From Porphyrobacter sp. IPPAS B-1204 (lineage in GTDB: Bacteria; Pseudomonadota; Alphaproteobacteria; Sphingomonadales; Sphingomonadaceae), in the NCBI GenBank assembly GCA_003724185.1, contig RHGM01000004.1:59466-123465 (forward strand): a DNA stretch of 64,000 nucleotides, given 5' to 3'. Positions 56,461 through 62,072 of this stretch are shown piece after piece; position 1 is the first letter of the stretch; each line of letters opens with the position of its first letter. The position numbers and the translations under genes were made by a program. Under the pieces are notes generated by a model. It saw only the letters and a list, made by a program, of their open reading frames with translations. It was not told the origin of the DNA and searched no databases.

Positions 56461-56781
56461 ATGGCCACCGTCAACGTCACCGATGCCAGCTTTCAGGCCG
56501 ATGTGCTGGGCAGCGATATTCCCGTGCTGGTCGATTTCTGGGCGGACTGGTGCGGCCCCTGCAAGATGATCGCGCCCGCGCTGGAGGAAATCAGCGAGGA
56601 GCTGGCGGGCCAGGTCAAGATCGCCAAAATCGATATCATGGAAAACACCGATATCGCCGCGCAGATCGGCGTGCAGTCGATCCCGCTGATGGTGTTGTTC
56701 AAGAATGGCGAGGCAGTCGCCCAGAAGCTCGGCGCAGCGCCCAAGGGACAACTGAAGGCCTGGCTCGAAAGCGAGCTGTAA
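56461..56781 (+). CDS. trxA: thioredoxin
   Basis: WCGPC active site. Confidence 0.96.
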
Positions 56782-56784
56782 GCT

Positions 56785-57597
56785 CTACCCCGTCAACCGC
56801 GCCACAAACGCATCCCAGATCGCCGGGCTGGACGCGCCAAGAAGCCCCTTCATGGTGTCGTCCCGCCCGTGCTGGTCCACGCGGTAGGCGCTGCCATCAA
56901 GCCGTGCAGCCTTGCCGCCTGCCTCGTTGAGCCACAGCACGCCTGCCGCATGATCCCATGCGAGCGTGCGCTTGAAGCTGGAGATGTCGTTTTCGCCCAG
57001 CGCAAGGCGCGGATATTGCTCGGCCGCGCAGCGGGGAATGTCGACCAGAGTGTAGTGGGGCGCGAGTTTTGCGTCGACCATCGCCGATTGTTCGGGGGTA
57101 AGGAAGATGCGGCTGACAGCGGTGACGGGCGGGGTCTGGCCGGTGGTGCGCGCCGCGATCCGCTCGCCGTTGATAAAGGCGCCTTCGCCGGCGCGGGCGT
57201 GGCAGAAGCGATCTTTCACGGGATCATAGATCCACCCCGCCACCGTCTCTCCGGCGTCAGCCAGCGCGATGATGATACCGAACGGCTCCTTGCCTTCCGC
57301 GAAGTTCGCGGTGCCATCCAGCGGGTCGATGATCCAGCATTGGCCGGACAGGTGATCGAGCACGCTTTTGTCAGCGTGCACCGCTTCCTCGCCCACCACC
57401 GCAACACCGGGGGCTAGGCGCGTCAGGGCTTCGGTAAGGAACGCCTCGATTTCGCGGTCGACAATGGTGACGGGATCATCCGCGCCCTTCATCTCGACAT
57501 CGCCTGCCGCAAGGTTGCGGAAGCGCGGCAGCATCGAACGCTGCGCGGCAAAGCGCATCAGGTCGCGGATTTCGGCGTCAAGGGCGGAGAGGCTCAC
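56785..57597 (-). CDS. inositol monophosphatase family protein
   Basis: DPVTIVD..E, GEE, WIIDPLDGTANF and WDHAAG motifs; GTG overlapping the argJ TGA. Confidence 0.9.
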   Translation of the reverse strand: MSLSALDAEIRDLMRFAAQRSMLPRFRNLAAGDVEMKGADDPVTIVDREIEAFLTEALTRLAPGVAVVGEEAVHADKSVLDHLSGQCWIIDPLDGTANFAEGKEPFGIIIALADAGETVAGWIYDPVKDRFCHARAGEGAFINGERIAARTTGQTPPVTAVSRIFLTPEQSAMVDAKLAPHYTLVDIPRCAAEQYPRLALGENDISSFKRTLAWDHAAGVLWLNEAGGKAARLDGSAYRVDQHGRDDTMKGLLGASSPAIWDAFVARLTG

Positions 57598-58820
57598 GAA
57601 CGATAGTCCGCGTTGATCGCGATGTAGCCATGCGTGAGATCGCAGGTCCACACAGTGGCGCGGCCATCCCCGAGGCCCAGATCAACCGCAATGTCGATGT
57701 CCTCGCCCTTCAGATGCGCGGCGACGGGCGCTTCGTCATAGTCATCTACGGGCAGGCCATCGCGCGCGGCCCAGACACCGCCGAATGCGATCGACAGCCG
57801 GTCGCGGTCCGCAGGCTCGCCCGCTTTGCCCACCGCCATGACCACGCGGCCCCAATTCGCGTCCTCGCCCGCAATCGCGGTTTTCACCAGCGGTGAGTTG
57901 GCAATGCTGAGGCCCACGGTGCGGGCGCTGGCATCGCTCGCCGCGCCGGACACGCGGATGGTGATGAACTTGACCGCGCCTTCACCGTCGCGCACCACCA
58001 GCTGCGCCAGATTGCGACACACATCGGCAAGCGCGGCGGCGAAGGCATCGGCGCCGGGGCTGTCCCAGCTGTCGATCCGGGCATTGCCCGCCTTGCCGGT
58101 GGCGAAGGCCATCACCGTGTCGCTGGTTGACGTGTCGCCATCCACCGTGATGCAGCTGAAGGTCGCCGCATTGGCGCGCTCCAGCGCCTCTTGCAGGAAC
58201 GCCGGGGCGACGTCTGCATCGGTAAAGATGTAGCCGAGCATCGTTGCCATGTCGGGCGCAATCATGCCGCTGCCCTTGATGATCCCGGCGAGCTCCACGC
58301 GGGTATCGCCGATCATCGCGCTCGCGCCCGCGCCCTTGGGGAATGTGTCTGTGGTGCCGATCGCGTTCGCTGCATCCTCCCAGCCGCAGGGCTCTGCCTG
58401 CAGCGCGGCGGCGATCCCGGCTTCGGCCTTGTCGATGGGCAGCGGCACGCCGATCACGCCTGTGGAGGAGACGAACACCTCGTCCACGCCGCAGGCCAGC
58501 GCCGCACAGACCTGCGCGCGGATTGCGTCCACCGCCGCGCGCCCGCGCCAGCCGGTGAAGGCGTTGGAATTGCCCGCGTTGACGATCAGCGCCCGTGCGC
58601 GGCCCTGTTTCACCGCCTCGCGCCCCAGTTCCACCTCTGACGAAGCGCAGGCGCTTTGGGTGAACACGCCCGCCGCCGCCGTGCCTTCGGCCAGCTCGGC
58701 GAAGGTCAGGTCGCAGCGGTCCCATTGCTTGTAACGCGCCCGTGCGACGCGCAAGCTGACGCCCGCAATCGCAGGCATGTCAGGGAAGGGGCGGGCGAGG
58801 GGTGAGCGGGTGGTCTGCAT
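57594..58820 (-). CDS. argJ: bifunctional ornithine acetyltransferase
   Basis: NAGNSNA, SSTGVIG, KGSGMIAPDMATML, DTSTSD, DGEGA, NWGR and WTCDLT motifs. Confidence 0.95.
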   Translation of the reverse strand: MQTTRSPLARPFPDMPAIAGVSLRVARARYKQWDRCDLTFAELAEGTAAAGVFTQSACASSEVELGREAVKQGRARALIVNAGNSNAFTGWRGRAAVDAIRAQVCAALACGVDEVFVSSTGVIGVPLPIDKAEAGIAAALQAEPCGWEDAANAIGTTDTFPKGAGASAMIGDTRVELAGIIKGSGMIAPDMATMLGYIFTDADVAPAFLQEALERANAATFSCITVDGDTSTSDTVMAFATGKAGNARIDSWDSPGADAFAAALADVCRNLAQLVVRDGEGAVKFITIRVSGAASDASARTVGLSIANSPLVKTAIAGEDANWGRVVMAVGKAGEPADRDRLSIAFGGVWAARDGLPVDDYDEAPVAAHLKGEDIDIAVDLGLGDGRATVWTCDLTHGYIAINADYRS

Positions 58821-58870
58821 GGGCCAAGCCTCTAAGCGGGGGAGAGGGCGGCGTAAATCCGCAAATCAGG

Positions 58871-58899
58871 TGGACGAAACGCGCACAAATGCCTATCTG
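58871..58899 (+). promoter_or_regulatory. putative sigma70 promoter for the uORF-secA transcript
   Basis: TGGACG-N17-TATCTG; the same -10 hexamer and spacing occur at the tRNA-Arg promoter; ATG follows 8 nt later. Confidence 0.5.
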
Positions 58900-58907
58900 G
58901 GCCGACG

Positions 58908-59183
58908 ATGACCCGGCACTTTCTCGCCTTTCTGGCCCTGCTTTCCGGCCTTGCTGCGTTTGGCAGCCCGGCGCAGGCGTCGCTGGTCGATGCCTTTGCT
59001 TGCGGGTCGAGCATTGCTGCCGCCGCCGGAAACGAGGCTGCGGTTGCCGAGCATGTGGCGGTGCAAGCCGTGCCTGCAACCGTGCAGGAAAGCCGCCAGA
59101 TCGAAGCGCCTGCAAGCCGCCCGGCCACGCCGCAATCGCTGCGCCTGCCGGTGCTGATGGGGATCGAACGCGCCTACGAATAG
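58908..59183 (+). CDS. 91-aa exported peptide upstream of secA (candidate secretion-monitor leader)
   Basis: Signal peptide MTRHFLAFLALLSGLAAFGSPAQA|S, a low-complexity Ala/Pro spacer and C-terminal PVLMGIERAYE. Confidence 0.7.
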   Translation: MTRHFLAFLALLSGLAAFGSPAQASLVDAFACGSSIAAAAGNEAAVAEHVAVQAVPATVQESRQIEAPASRPATPQSLRLPVLMGIERAYE

Positions 59184-59309
59184 GCAGTGCGTGACCGTTC
59201 TCCCCGTGCTTTTCCGCGCGCCGATCCTTGATGAGGACAGCGCGCAACCCACCCAAACAGATTGCGCGCTCCGCTCGCCGGGCTGCCGCCGAATCAAAGG
59301 TTTACACCC

Positions 59310-62072
59310 ATGTTCGATACGCTTCTCAAGTCGGTGTTCGGTTCCTCGAACGACCGTTACATCAAGTCGGCACGCAAGACCGTAGACCAGATCAACGCGC
59401 TGGAGCCGCAAATCCAGGCGCTTACCGATGCCGAGCTTCAGGGCCAGACTGCCAAGCTGCGCGGATTGATTGATGGCGGGGCGAGCCTTGACGATATCCT
59501 GCCCGAAGCTTTCGCCACCGTGCGCGAGGCTTCGGTGCGCGTGTTCGGGATGCGGCACTTCGATGTGCAGTTGATCGGCGGCCTCGTGCTCCACCGCGGC
59601 GAGATCGCGGAAATGCGCACGGGTGAGGGCAAGACCCTGATGGCGACGCTGGCCGTGTATCTCAATGCGCTTGAAGGCAAGGGCGTCCACGTTGTCACGG
59701 TCAACGATTACCTTGCCCGGCGCGACGCGGCGGAGATGGGCAAGCTGTACAACTGGCTGGGCCTGACCGTTGGCGTGATCGTCCCCGGTATGCCGGAAGA
59801 GTACAAGCGCGATGCCTACAACGCCGACATCACCTACGGCACCAACAATGAATTCGGCTTCGATTACCTGCGCGACAACATGAAGCACGAGCGCGCCCAG
59901 ATGGCGCAGCGCCCCTTCAATTTTGCCATCGTCGACGAAGTGGATTCGATCCTGATCGACGAGGCGCGCACCCCGCTGATCATCTCTGGCCCGACCGAGG
60001 ACAAGTCGGAACTGTACGTCCAGCTTGATCAGGTCGCGCGCGAGATTCCGCTCGAATGGCTCGACATCGATGAAAAGGTGAAGCGCGTCCAGCTGACCGA
60101 AGAGGGTATGGAAGAGGTCGAAAAGCTGCTGATCGAAAAGGAGCTGCTAGCCACCGACAACCTGTTCGATGTCGAAAACACGCAGGTCGTCCACCACCTC
60201 GATCAGGCGCTGGTCGCCAACTTCGCCCGCAAGCGCGACACCGATTACATCGTCAATGATGGCAAGGTCATCATCATCGACGAATTCACCGGTCGCATGA
60301 TGGATGGCCGCCGCTGGTCGAACGGGCTGCATCAGGCGGTTGAGGCCAAGGAAGGCGTGCGGATCGAGCCGGAGAACCAGACGCTCGCCTCGATCACCTT
60401 CCAGAACTATTTTCGCATGTATCCCAAGCTGTCCGGCATGACCGGGACGGCCGCGACCGAAGCGGCGGAATTCTGGGACATCTACAAGGTGGGCGTGGTC
60501 GAAATTCCCACCAACCTGCCCGTCGCCCGGATCGACGAGGAAGACGAGTTCTACAAGAACACCGCCGACAAGTTCGGCGCGATTGCCAAGTCGATCAAGG
60601 AAAAGCAGCAGATCGGCCAGCCGGTGCTGGTTGGCACGGTGTCGATCGAAAAGTCCGAACTGCTGAGTGAATATCTCGACAAGGAAGGCGTGACGCACTC
60701 GGTGCTCAATGCCCGCTTCCACGAACAGGAAGCCCGGATCGTGGCGCAGGCGGGCCGTTATGGTGCGGTGACGATTGCCACCAACATGGCGGGCCGCGGG
60801 ACTGACATCCAGCTGGGCGGCAACATCGAATACCGCATCCTCGATGAACTCGGCGATATGCCGGATGGCCCCGAACGCGATGAAGCCGTGGCGCGGATCA
60901 AGGCTGAAGTCGCTGCGGAAAAGGAACGCGTGAAGGCCGCAGGTGGCCTGTTCGTGCTTGGCACCGAACGGCATGAATCCCGCCGCATCGACAACCAGCT
61001 GCGCGGCCGTTCGGGCCGTCAGGGCGATCCGGGCCTGTCGCGCTTCTACCTGTGCCTTGAAGACGACCTGCTGCGCATCTTCGGCCCCGACACGCTGTTT
61101 TCGAAGATGATGAACTCCAACCTCGCCGATGGTGAGGCGATTGGTTCCAAGTGGCTGTCCAAGGCGATCGAGACCGCGCAGAAAAAGGTCGAAGCGCGCA
61201 ATTACGACATGCGCAAGCAGGTCGTGCAATATGATGACGTGATGAACGACCAGCGCAAGGTGGTCTATGAACAGCGCTCCGAAATCATGGATTCCGAGGC
61301 CGTGGACGATGTGGTGCTGGATATGCGGCACGACACGATCAACGCCATCGTCGGCACCGCCTGCCCTCCGGGTTCTTATCCCGAACAGTGGGACGTTGCC
61401 GGGCTGAAGGCCCGCGCCGAGGAAGTGCTGGGCTTCAACCCGCCGATCGACGATTGGCTCGCGGAAGACGAGGTCGAACCTGAACTGATCGAGGAACGCC
61501 TGCGCGAACTGACCGATGCCATGATGGACGAAAAGATCGCTGCCTCCGATCCGGCGATCTGGCGCGTCGTCGAAAAGGACGTGCTGCTGCGCCAGCTCGA
61601 TCACCACTGGAAGGAACACCTCGCCACGCTGGACGCGCTGCGTCAGGTGATCTGGATGCGGGGCATCGCCCAGAAGCAGCCGATCAACGAATACAAGCAG
61701 GAAGCCTTTGCCCTGTTCGAAACGATGCTGGAAACCCTTCGCGAGGAAGTGACCAAGATCCTGTTCCGCTCCGAACTGCGCTTTGAACAGCCGCAGCCGC
61801 AGGCGCTGCCCGATCTGCCCGACTTCCTCACCGGCCATATCGATCCCTTTACGGGGATGGACAATTCGGCCGATGGCGACGGGTCGGAACTGCGCCCTGA
61901 GCTGTTCGGCTCGCTGGCTGGCAGCCCGCGCGCGGCCTTCGGTCCGGGCGGGGCGAACCCCGACAACCCCTACGCCAACCTCGACATCAGCCGCAACGCG
62001 CCGTGCCCGTGCGGGAGCGGGAGCAAGTACAAGCATTGCCACGGCGCGGTGGGCGCAGGCGCGATTGTCTGA
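59310..62072 (+). CDS. secA: preprotein translocase ATPase SecA
   Basis: [55 protein letters not shown] and C-terminal SEC-C motif [13 protein letters not shown]; ATG at 59310. Confidence 0.97.

Follow-up and report, generated by a model that had tools for sequence, protein, structure and literature searches.

A small open reading frame (ORF) of 91 codons precedes secA in the genome of Porphyrobacter sp. IPPAS B-1204, and the question that this locus raises is whether the ORF encodes a peptide that monitors protein export through the Sec pathway and regulates secA from within its own leader. The stretch of DNA analysed, called the window below, comprises 64,000 nucleotides of contig RHGM01000004.1 (assembly GCA_003724185.1, positions 59,466 to 123,465 of the forward strand). 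Sec-monitoring arrest peptides are models of how a nascent chain shuts off the ribosome that makes it and of how mechanical force restarts translation. To our knowledge, almost all characterised bacterial members of this group use proline or RAPP-like motifs. The original prediction for the window, a SecM-like secretion monitor with a tail lacking proline, would therefore be unusual. On balance, the evidence discussed here inclines us, by a modest measure, to read the upstream ORF (uORF) as a Sec-monitoring arrest peptide with a new motif, possibly dependent on release factor 1 (RF1), whose output would more likely be exerted through transcription or Rho than through unmasking of a ribosome-binding site (RBS).

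The upstream open reading frame and its product

58908..59183, plus strand: uORF, the leader peptide gene, 91 codons with an ATG start and a TAG stop (from the sequence and the ORF list); homologs in 25/25 genus genomes and in 47/112 sampled genera
59310..62072, plus strand: secA, the putatively regulated gene; Pfam SecA_DEAD at 4e-130, with P-loop, PP_bind, SW and SEC-C domains
58908..58979, plus strand: signal peptide, residues 1-24 (MTRHFLAFLALLSGLAAFGSPAQA), with predicted AxA cleavage after A24
58980..59135, plus strand: hypervariable low-complexity spacer, residues 25-76, kept in length and not in sequence
59136..59180, plus strand: C-terminal segment SLRLPVLMGIERAYE, residues 77-91, a candidate arrest motif recognised by amino-acid conservation

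The ATG of secA, at 59310, lies on the same strand as the uORF and is separated from it by 126 nucleotides (nt). Spurious ORFs are abundant in a high-GC genome, and conservation is therefore the real test of whether the uORF is a gene. A six-frame search of 40 relatives showed that each of the 24 other genomes of the genus (Erythrobacter/Porphyrobacter) has a match over the full length with no stop in it, at identities ranging from 79% to 36%, and in 25 of 25 genus genomes the ORF has 88-95 codons, with secA beginning ~100-150 nt downstream. Scanning of public genomes, seeded with 11 closer sequences, added 79 further loci whose titles name Erythrobacter, Porphyrobacter or metagenome-assembled genomes of Erythrobacteraceae or Sphingomonadales. 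A profile search found the uORF in 60 of 151 genomes of the GTDB family, representing 47 of 112 sampled genera, and in 94 of 301 genomes at the level of the order, where the clear matches all fall within one family. The homologs from the genus, from the 79 contigs and from the family are full-length and free of internal stops, and stand 85-155 nt before secA, which lies downstream in every case where the flanking sequence is long enough; the 123 distinct proteins among them measure 87-95 amino acids (aa).

The family also holds more distant relatives. Inspection of the region upstream of secA in family genomes negative in the profile search (79, plus 12) revealed about 20 diverged copies of 80-114 aa, located 70-160 nt before secA, which begin with (M)xLLLFLSALLSGLTG and end in ERRRE, DRARE, GRRRE, DRLRE, DRPLE or similar sequences. 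The remaining profile-negative genomes carry trxA, a TonB-C-like ORF or nothing recognisable before secA. Where trxA directly precedes secA in uORF-less genomes (L141, L166, L186, L187), the arrangement may be compared with that of the window, in which trxA is found ~2.5 kb upstream (56461-56781); this suggests local rearrangement around secA. Other uORF-less genomes (L134, L140, L147, L149, L181) possess an ORF of ~110-155 aa, ~100-130 nt before secA, with a hydrophobic N-terminus and an end reading ..GDKHELEEGAP or similar, which could be a different secA-linked exported protein.

The pattern of nucleotide diversity in 70 ungapped genus-level sequences is that of a coding region at both ends of the ORF. 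Diversity follows the order third > first > second codon position in the signal peptide (0.40/0.22/0.08) and again in the C-terminal 15 codons (0.31/0.14/0.07), and it is high throughout the middle (0.62/0.41/0.43 for positions 3, 1 and 2). Judged by these patterns, the uORF is translated and under purifying selection at its two ends, and a chance origin is excluded. An antisense ORF of 331 codons (58893-59888, minus strand), lying opposite the uORF and the start of secA, was considered as a gene and rejected: it is a typical shadow ORF of high-GC DNA, and the codon-position pattern favours the plus-strand frames.

The peptide is built in the order MTRHFLAFLALLSGLAAFGSPAQA|SLVDAFAC...SLRLPVLMGIERAYE, with an Ala/Pro/Glu-rich middle between its two conserved ends. 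The signal peptide, whose n/h/c layout was judged by eye, consists of a basic n-region, a hydrophobic core of 15 residues and an AQA|S site. This layout is conserved in all homologs, where G14, L15, A17 and A10 vary little or not at all; the N-terminal core M-x-R-x-x-L-A-x-L-A-L-L-(T/S)-G-L-A-A is nearly invariant among the 123 distinct proteins, and an 'ALL(S/T)GL' signal or anchor core is retained even in the diverged subfamily. The ~50 residues that follow cannot be aligned between genera. Conservation resumes in the tail, which reads LRLPVLMGI(E/D)RA(Y/F/H/L)E in the genus, with V82, R88 and A89 invariant there, and (I/V)-x-(I/V)-P-(T/P)-V-x-x-G-x-D-R-A-x-E in the family; R-A-Y-E alternates with RAFE, RALE, RAHE, RARE and RRRE. 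Once the diverged copies are included, the core common to the whole family is (D/E)-R-x-x-E followed by the stop codon.

The uORF thus shows all four in-silico hallmarks by which candidate arrest peptides of this kind have been recognised (Sakiyama 2021; Fujiwara 2024; PMC10987492): (i) it is a small ORF, without assigned function, that immediately precedes secA in the same orientation; (ii) it has an N-terminal signal peptide, recognised by eye; (iii) it has a conserved C-terminal motif, LRLPVLMGIERAYE in the genus and the (D/E)-R-x-x-E-stop core family-wide; and (iv) 67 residues (25-91) lie between the signal and the end of the motif, beyond the more than 30 that is asked for. Because the layout is that of an exported chain whose C-terminal ~14 residues are conserved, a monitoring substrate is the natural reading, and the product of the uORF is most likely a leader peptide dedicated to secA, exported by Sec and acting as a secretion monitor.

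A clear signal peptide would equally suit a conventional small protein, periplasmic or secreted, that does work of its own, for instance through its C-terminal tail or its cysteines; such a protein would not regulate secA, and its co-transcription with secA would be historical or stoichiometric. Homologs in Erythrobacter, Porphyrobacter, Parerythrobacter and Pelagerythrobacter are indeed labelled 'hypothetical protein' by NCBI, RefSeq and UniProt, one or more Cys residues are conserved after the signal, with pairs in many family members, and a constant length is something that small exported proteins can also hold. Against this, the middle two thirds of the mature part are hypervariable and of low complexity, and no confident fold was obtained with AlphaFold2, which gave a mean predicted local distance difference test (pLDDT) score of 58.5 and a predicted template modelling score of 0.22; the signal helix alone is modelled confidently (pLDDT 76-81), and values stay below 60 in the spacer (residues 25-76). 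All homologs, drawn from dozens of genera, are linked to secA, and the nucleotide-level constraints on stop codon, hairpin and leader composition described below would be unexpected for a plain structural gene; we consider this explanation distinctly improbable. The peptide matches no Pfam family at E<=1 and no NCBIfam family, the sole match in the latter being a chance one to DsbB (E 0.079). As regards the cysteines themselves, one soon after the cleavage site (residue ~32) is kept in the genus, and many family members have two to four in the variable region (residues ~45-70), for example as CxC or C-K-P-R-K-P; disulfide formation in the periplasm might add to pulling force or stability.

The description of the locus given in the original prediction stands up to this comparison. 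A 91-residue ORF does lie on the secA strand, 126 nt upstream of a secA identified by its Pfam domains; the Sec signal peptide with an AQA site is there, with the n/h/c layout seen by eye, and so are the low-complexity spacer, in which Glu joins the Ala and Pro first described, and the distinct tail. The element TGGACG-N17-TATCTG, 8 nt before an ATG devoid of a Shine-Dalgarno (SD) sequence, proved to be conserved in genus and family, and the window indeed holds no terminator hairpin with a U tract between the two genes. The pattern of conservation that had been anticipated was also found, since the signal, the last ~14 residues, the stop position and synteny with secA are kept in 123 distinct homologs around a hypervariable middle.

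The stop codon and the surrounding hairpin

59181..59183, plus strand: TAG stop codon, read by RF1 alone; TAG 120, TAA 2 and TGA 0 among 122 distinct homologs
59168..59192, plus strand: predicted hairpin H1 around the stop, with 5' arm ACGCGCCUA (59168-59176), loop CGAA and 3' arm UAGGC..GCGU (59181-59192)

The end of the uORF is constrained in nucleotides as well as in amino acids. Among 1,169 long ORFs of this genome, assembled as a crude set, the stop frequencies are TGA 0.58, TAA 0.21 and TAG 0.21, to be compared with the near-exclusive TAG of the uORF. In the diverged subfamily, the stops of about 21 sequences are TAG or TAA except for one TGA (L150), so that stops across the superfamily are readable by RF1 with one exception. 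Synonymous codons just before the stop are likewise frozen (residues are numbered backwards from the stop, the last being Glu-1). Arg-4 is CGC in 120 of 120 homologs, whereas Arg-13 of the same peptides uses four codons; Tyr-2 is encoded by TAC 71 times and never by TAT (52:48 in the crude ORF set), and Glu-1 by GAA 111 times and by GAG 7 times (54:46 in the crude set).

These codons coincide with H1, the 5' arm of which is made of the Arg-Ala-Tyr codons, while GAA-UAG falls in the loop. When the 34 nt around the stop are folded, nearly all of 117 distinct sequences give a hairpin of this type as their minimum-free-energy structure, and its stems covary: an Ala codon GCC is answered by GC.. 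after the stop, GCG or GCT by CGC. Cognate arms fold at -11.5 kcal/mol versus -6.5 kcal/mol when the 3' arm is shuffled, the cognate form being the stabler in 96% of cases, and arms swapped between homologs reach -10.4 kcal/mol (P about 1e-4). The diverged copies build their stems from different sequences (CGCCGGCGCG/CGCGCCCGGCG, GCUGGCUGG/UCCGGCCCGGC and GGCCGGCGG/CCGCACGGCC), and their loops keep GAA-UAR or a close variant. No Rfam family matches H1 or the leader at E<=1. Two other accounts of H1 were tried and rejected. It is not a dispersed palindromic repeat, as only 8 of 698 genomic GAATAG sites have a stem of at least 7 bp, with no common sequence among them; nor does ribosome bypassing of the T4 gene-60 type fit, as the 5' arm of H1 is placed before the P site, the spacer contains no conserved GAA landing codon, and the single GAA in the spacer of the window is out of frame with secA.

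It may be asked at this point whether the peptide matters at all. In an RNA-centred leader, H1 and the C-rich leader downstream would be the key element, and the uORF would be translated to let a ribosome open or close H1, which could serve as a device for transcription-translation coupling or pausing or as a binding site for a protein, for example SecA; the identity of the tail residues would then follow for the most part from the needs of the GC-rich stem and the GAA-UAG loop, and no peptide-specific arrest would be needed. The exact coincidence of the frozen synonymous sites with hairpin and loop codons speaks for such a view, together with the covariation of the stems and the persistence of the hairpin and its GAA-UAR loop in the diverged subfamily on other stems; the use of TAG or TAA and not TGA could be a requirement of the loop sequence, and the folding models described below predict no SD-unmasking switch. 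What it fails to account for is the segment from position -14 to -5, which lies outside H1 and is conserved in its residues, as is Ala-3, while synonymous sites vary; third positions there are free, with four codons in use for Val, four for Gly and five for Leu. Furthermore, Arg-4 and Asp/Glu-5 persist through codon changes. Since the diverged subfamily encodes Arg-4 by CGC, CGG, CGT and CGA, this residue is selected as an amino acid. A conserved signal peptide and a fixed length would also be superfluous in an ORF that merely delivers a ribosome. We regard the RNA-centred explanation as unlikely. In our reading of these patterns, the last five codons are under two constraints at once, one on the peptide and one on the RNA.

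Promoter, leader and possible read-out of the uORF

58871..58899, plus strand: predicted promoter of the leader gene, with -35 TGGACG (58871-58876), a 17-nt spacer and -10 TATCTG (58894-58899)
59184..59309, plus strand: leader of 126 nt between uORF and secA, C-rich and G-poor, a possible Rho loading region (base composition)
59214-59222, 59239-59247 and 59262-59270, plus strand: self-complementary GCGCGC boxes (sequence)
59239..59270, plus strand: hairpin H2 (AGCGCGCAA ... UUGCGCGCU), the strongest predicted stem of the leader, with no U tract after it
59296..59300, plus strand: SD sequence of secA, AAAGG (sequence)

The promoter-like element ends 8 nt before the ATG of the uORF, and no SD sequence lies between them. 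The pattern GTGGAC(G)-N17-(C)TATCT-N8-9-ATG recurs without shift of register in 95 homologs at genus level and 28 at family level, and the 8-9 nt directly before the ATG are conserved in neither set; a strict sigma-70 scan gave the element no score. Because the -10 box ends so close to an ATG without SD, the mRNA of the uORF is probably leaderless or nearly so. No second conserved promoter-like block was seen in the spacer between uORF and secA, and secA is therefore probably transcribed through the uORF.

On the other side of the promoter lies a divergent gene.

57594..58820, minus strand: argJ, upstream of and divergent to the uORF (Pfam ArgJ, 1e-133)

Within the region between argJ and the uORF (58829-58859), CCTCTA(A/G)G and GTAAATC are kept across the genus. 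The former is the reverse complement of the SD sequence of argJ, and the latter (58853-58859) may be a promoter or operator element of argJ on the minus strand.

If the uORF controls secA, its translation must be read out somewhere in the leader. The leader varies between 85 and 155 nt across homologs, with a median of 120 nt, and a second GC-rich hairpin is predicted in most of them. One candidate read-out is that of a classical SecM-type switch, in which an arrested ribosome would melt a stem that sequesters the SD sequence of secA. Position and layout do resemble those of secM-secA, and codons -8 to -4 of the uORF are slightly over-complementary to the spacer (-14.0 versus -13.0 kcal/mol). 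This read-out was modelled in 120 homologs by keeping a 28-nt footprint unpaired while the P site was placed at codons 0, -1, -2, -4, -6 and -8. Averaged over the homologs, a footprint at these six positions shifts the predicted accessibility of the RBS by no more than 0.02, and downstream hairpins are not systematically affected. The complementarity of spacer to RBS falls under shuffled controls in 70% of homologs. RNAalifold found no consensus structure in the whole-spacer alignment, which was poor and, as produced by MAFFT, heavily gapped. The folding models thus lend no support to a read-out through an opened SD stem, and a SecM-type switch seems to us very improbable here. In many family homologs, the SD sequence of secA belongs to the 3' arm of a small hairpin formed locally within the last ~25 nt before the ATG (L020, L024, L108, L116, L118, L119, L121, L126, L127). 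The arms of this hairpin covary (GUCC-N5-GGAC, GUCU-N6-AGAC, GUCC-UGAC-AGGGC), and it could tune initiation of secA independently of the uORF.

Attenuation by an intrinsic terminator, through alternative 1:2, 2:3 and 3:4 pairings of the GCGCGC boxes, was also rejected, as just 17 of 120 leaders, the one in the window not among them, contain a canonical hairpin with U tract. The boxes, the CGCGC of the Arg-Ala codons and the GCG that follows the stop could between them pair in many alternative ways, and modelling gave no consistent switch.

What distinguishes the leader is its composition, with a mean of 0.38 C and 0.25 G over the homologs. C exceeds G in 120 of 120 homologs (mean C/G 1.54), and in a control set from this genome, 198 spacers of 80-200 nt between co-directional genes, the median C/G is 1.02 and only 10% reach 1.5. 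The genome has a rho gene. With intrinsic terminators uncommon in the leaders and no masking of the SD sequence predicted, a read-out resembling that of the tna operon would be the most economical.

Known arrest peptides and a proposed mechanism

TnaC, the leader peptide of tnaCAB in Escherichia coli, senses free tryptophan, is not exported, is 24 aa long and ends in Pro-UGA, a stop read by RF2. The nascent TnaC peptide blocks the release factor at the stop codon, and the ribosome parked beside a C-rich spacer prevents Rho-dependent termination (PMC10941005). By analogy, the mechanism suggested for the uORF is similar, with the differences that the signal would be export force, that the stop is of the RF1 type and that Rho would be involved only as the C>G composition suggests.

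Among characterised systems, the nearest are the peptides arresting at a stop codon that Fujiwara et al. 2024 reported (Nat Commun 15:2711, PMC10987492). Like the uORF, they are small ORFs before a sec gene on the same strand, with a localisation signal at the N-terminus, a spacer that exceeds 30 residues and a motif abutting the stop codon; for these peptides the published work places the arrested ribosome with the stop codon in its A site and shows that this codon is required. Unlike the uORF, they come from another phylum, without sequence similarity; two of the three published classes described there end in Pro, whereas the tail here is R-A-Y-E or (D/E)-R-x-x-E without Pro; and here the stop is TAG or TAA, set in a conserved hairpin loop, on an mRNA that is apparently leaderless. 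The uORF motif thus abuts a stop of conserved identity (TAG in 120 of 122), and its sequence fits none of the three published stop-codon motifs. The survey covered 30,175 genomes, including Sphingomonadales, and the text and supplementary files that could be consulted contain no candidate from this order (PMC10987492). Likewise, no report linking arrest peptides with sphingomonads was found in the literature.

In SecM, control of secA by export activity closes a feedback loop (PMC10951299). SecM, which occurs in Enterobacterales and relatives, shares with the uORF its place upstream of secA, a signal peptide, a conserved C-terminal segment and an Arg three residues before the A-site residue (R-A-G|P in SecM, where it is essential; R-A-Y|E here, where it is a candidate). 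Homology was nevertheless rejected, given that there is no Pfam match at E<=1 (PF06558 included) nor, the chance DsbB match apart, any in NCBIfam, that the spacing differs and that GI is not kept. SecM is 170 aa long against 91 here, and its motif, FxxxxWIxxxxGIRAGP with Pro at the A site, ends four codons before the stop and not at it; here no Pro follows RA. The gap from PVL to GI is one residue instead of five, and the family replaces GI by GP, GA, GS or GV. Also unlike SecM, no SD-sequestering stem that a ribosome would open is predicted by our models. The echo of SecM that the original prediction had heard in PV....GI.RA is accordingly superficial, since neither GI nor A, but only (D/E)-R-x-x-E, is kept across the family. 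ApdP (Sakiyama et al. 2021, PMC7897499) is likewise an alphaproteobacterial exported uORF before a Sec component, with Arg-Ala opening its terminal motif; it differs in preceding secDF and in arresting elongation on R-A-P-P. No RAPP-like or RQH tetrapeptide (RAPP, RAGP, RAPG, RGPP, HAPP, QAPP) occurs here, and none of the 123 homologs has a Pro among its last four residues.

On this comparison, a secretion monitor of a Pro-less class is the best-supported reading of the uORF, and one that is only partly supported. In the mechanism that we propose, the conserved promoter would start transcription at the ATG or immediately ahead of it, and the 91-residue nascent chain would carry its N-terminal signal peptide on a spacer of fixed length (~66 residues), with the last ~14 residues (..P-V-L-M-G-I-E-R-A-Y-E) still inside the exit tunnel by the time translation comes to the final codons. 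The tail might then slow or block peptide release by RF1 at UAG; alternatively, the stall might fall on the last elongation step, where the register R-x-x|E would correspond to R-A-G|P of SecM and R-A-P|P of ApdA/ApdP. As long as export works, the translocon would pull on the chain and the ribosome would quickly be released, and when export is limiting, the ribosome would stay on the last codons. A ribosome parked there would prevent H1 from forming and cover the start of the C-rich leader, which would favour read-through into secA in a tna-like manner by hindering Rho, or would else protect the mRNA. Upon normal release, H1 would re-form, Rho would load and transcription would stop before secA.

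Several observations weigh against this reading. The conservation of the last five codons is in part at the nucleotide level, and H1 could explain it without any effect of the peptide, all the more as GC-rich stems necessarily encode Arg and Ala; with two constraints acting on these codons, the argument from 'RAYE' alone is weakened. No Pro stands at or near the C-terminus, and the characterised Sec/YidC stop-codon arrest classes end in Pro, with the exception of uDF_DGMK-stop (PMC10987492). In the partition-function models of the 120 homologs, a parked ribosome leaves the secA RBS with an unpaired probability of 0.54-0.555, versus 0.537 when the RNA is free, and brings about no systematic change in downstream hairpins, and the low complementarity between spacer and RBS looks as if the RBS were kept open. 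The classical read-out is thus missing from the models, the Rho read-out is a proposal drawn from base composition, and a ribosome at the stop shields only ~12 nt of the leader. The suggestion of a Pro-less class acting at termination fares half well: it fits the near-absolute conservation of TAG, while the conservation of the tail turned out to be partly that of the RNA hairpin H1.

A more specific version of the favoured reading would combine all of its parts, in that the (D/E)-R-x-x-E tail would block RF1-dependent release, until force frees the ribosome, at a UAG that on free mRNA is held in a hairpin loop. The parked ribosome would hold this hairpin open and screen the beginning of the C-rich leader from Rho, and secA would be controlled through transcription elongation and not translation initiation, by a tna-like export-sensing circuit on a leaderless mRNA, ancestral to much of the Sphingomonadaceae. 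Taken jointly, these propositions are unlikely to hold, and we put them forward as a speculative model.

If the secretion-monitor reading is true, several of its features would be new, namely a Glu-stop motif without proline, the restriction to stops readable by RF1 and an mRNA hairpin around the stop codon, to which may be added a read-out apparently other than unmasking of an SD sequence. It would also mean that the arrest classes are not exhausted by the genome-wide survey of 2024. The dozens of carrier genera include cultivable Erythrobacter, Porphyrobacter and Pelagerythrobacter, in which the proposal is directly testable, and the uORF would then account for the control of secA in an order of Alphaproteobacteria in which we found no regulator reported in the literature.

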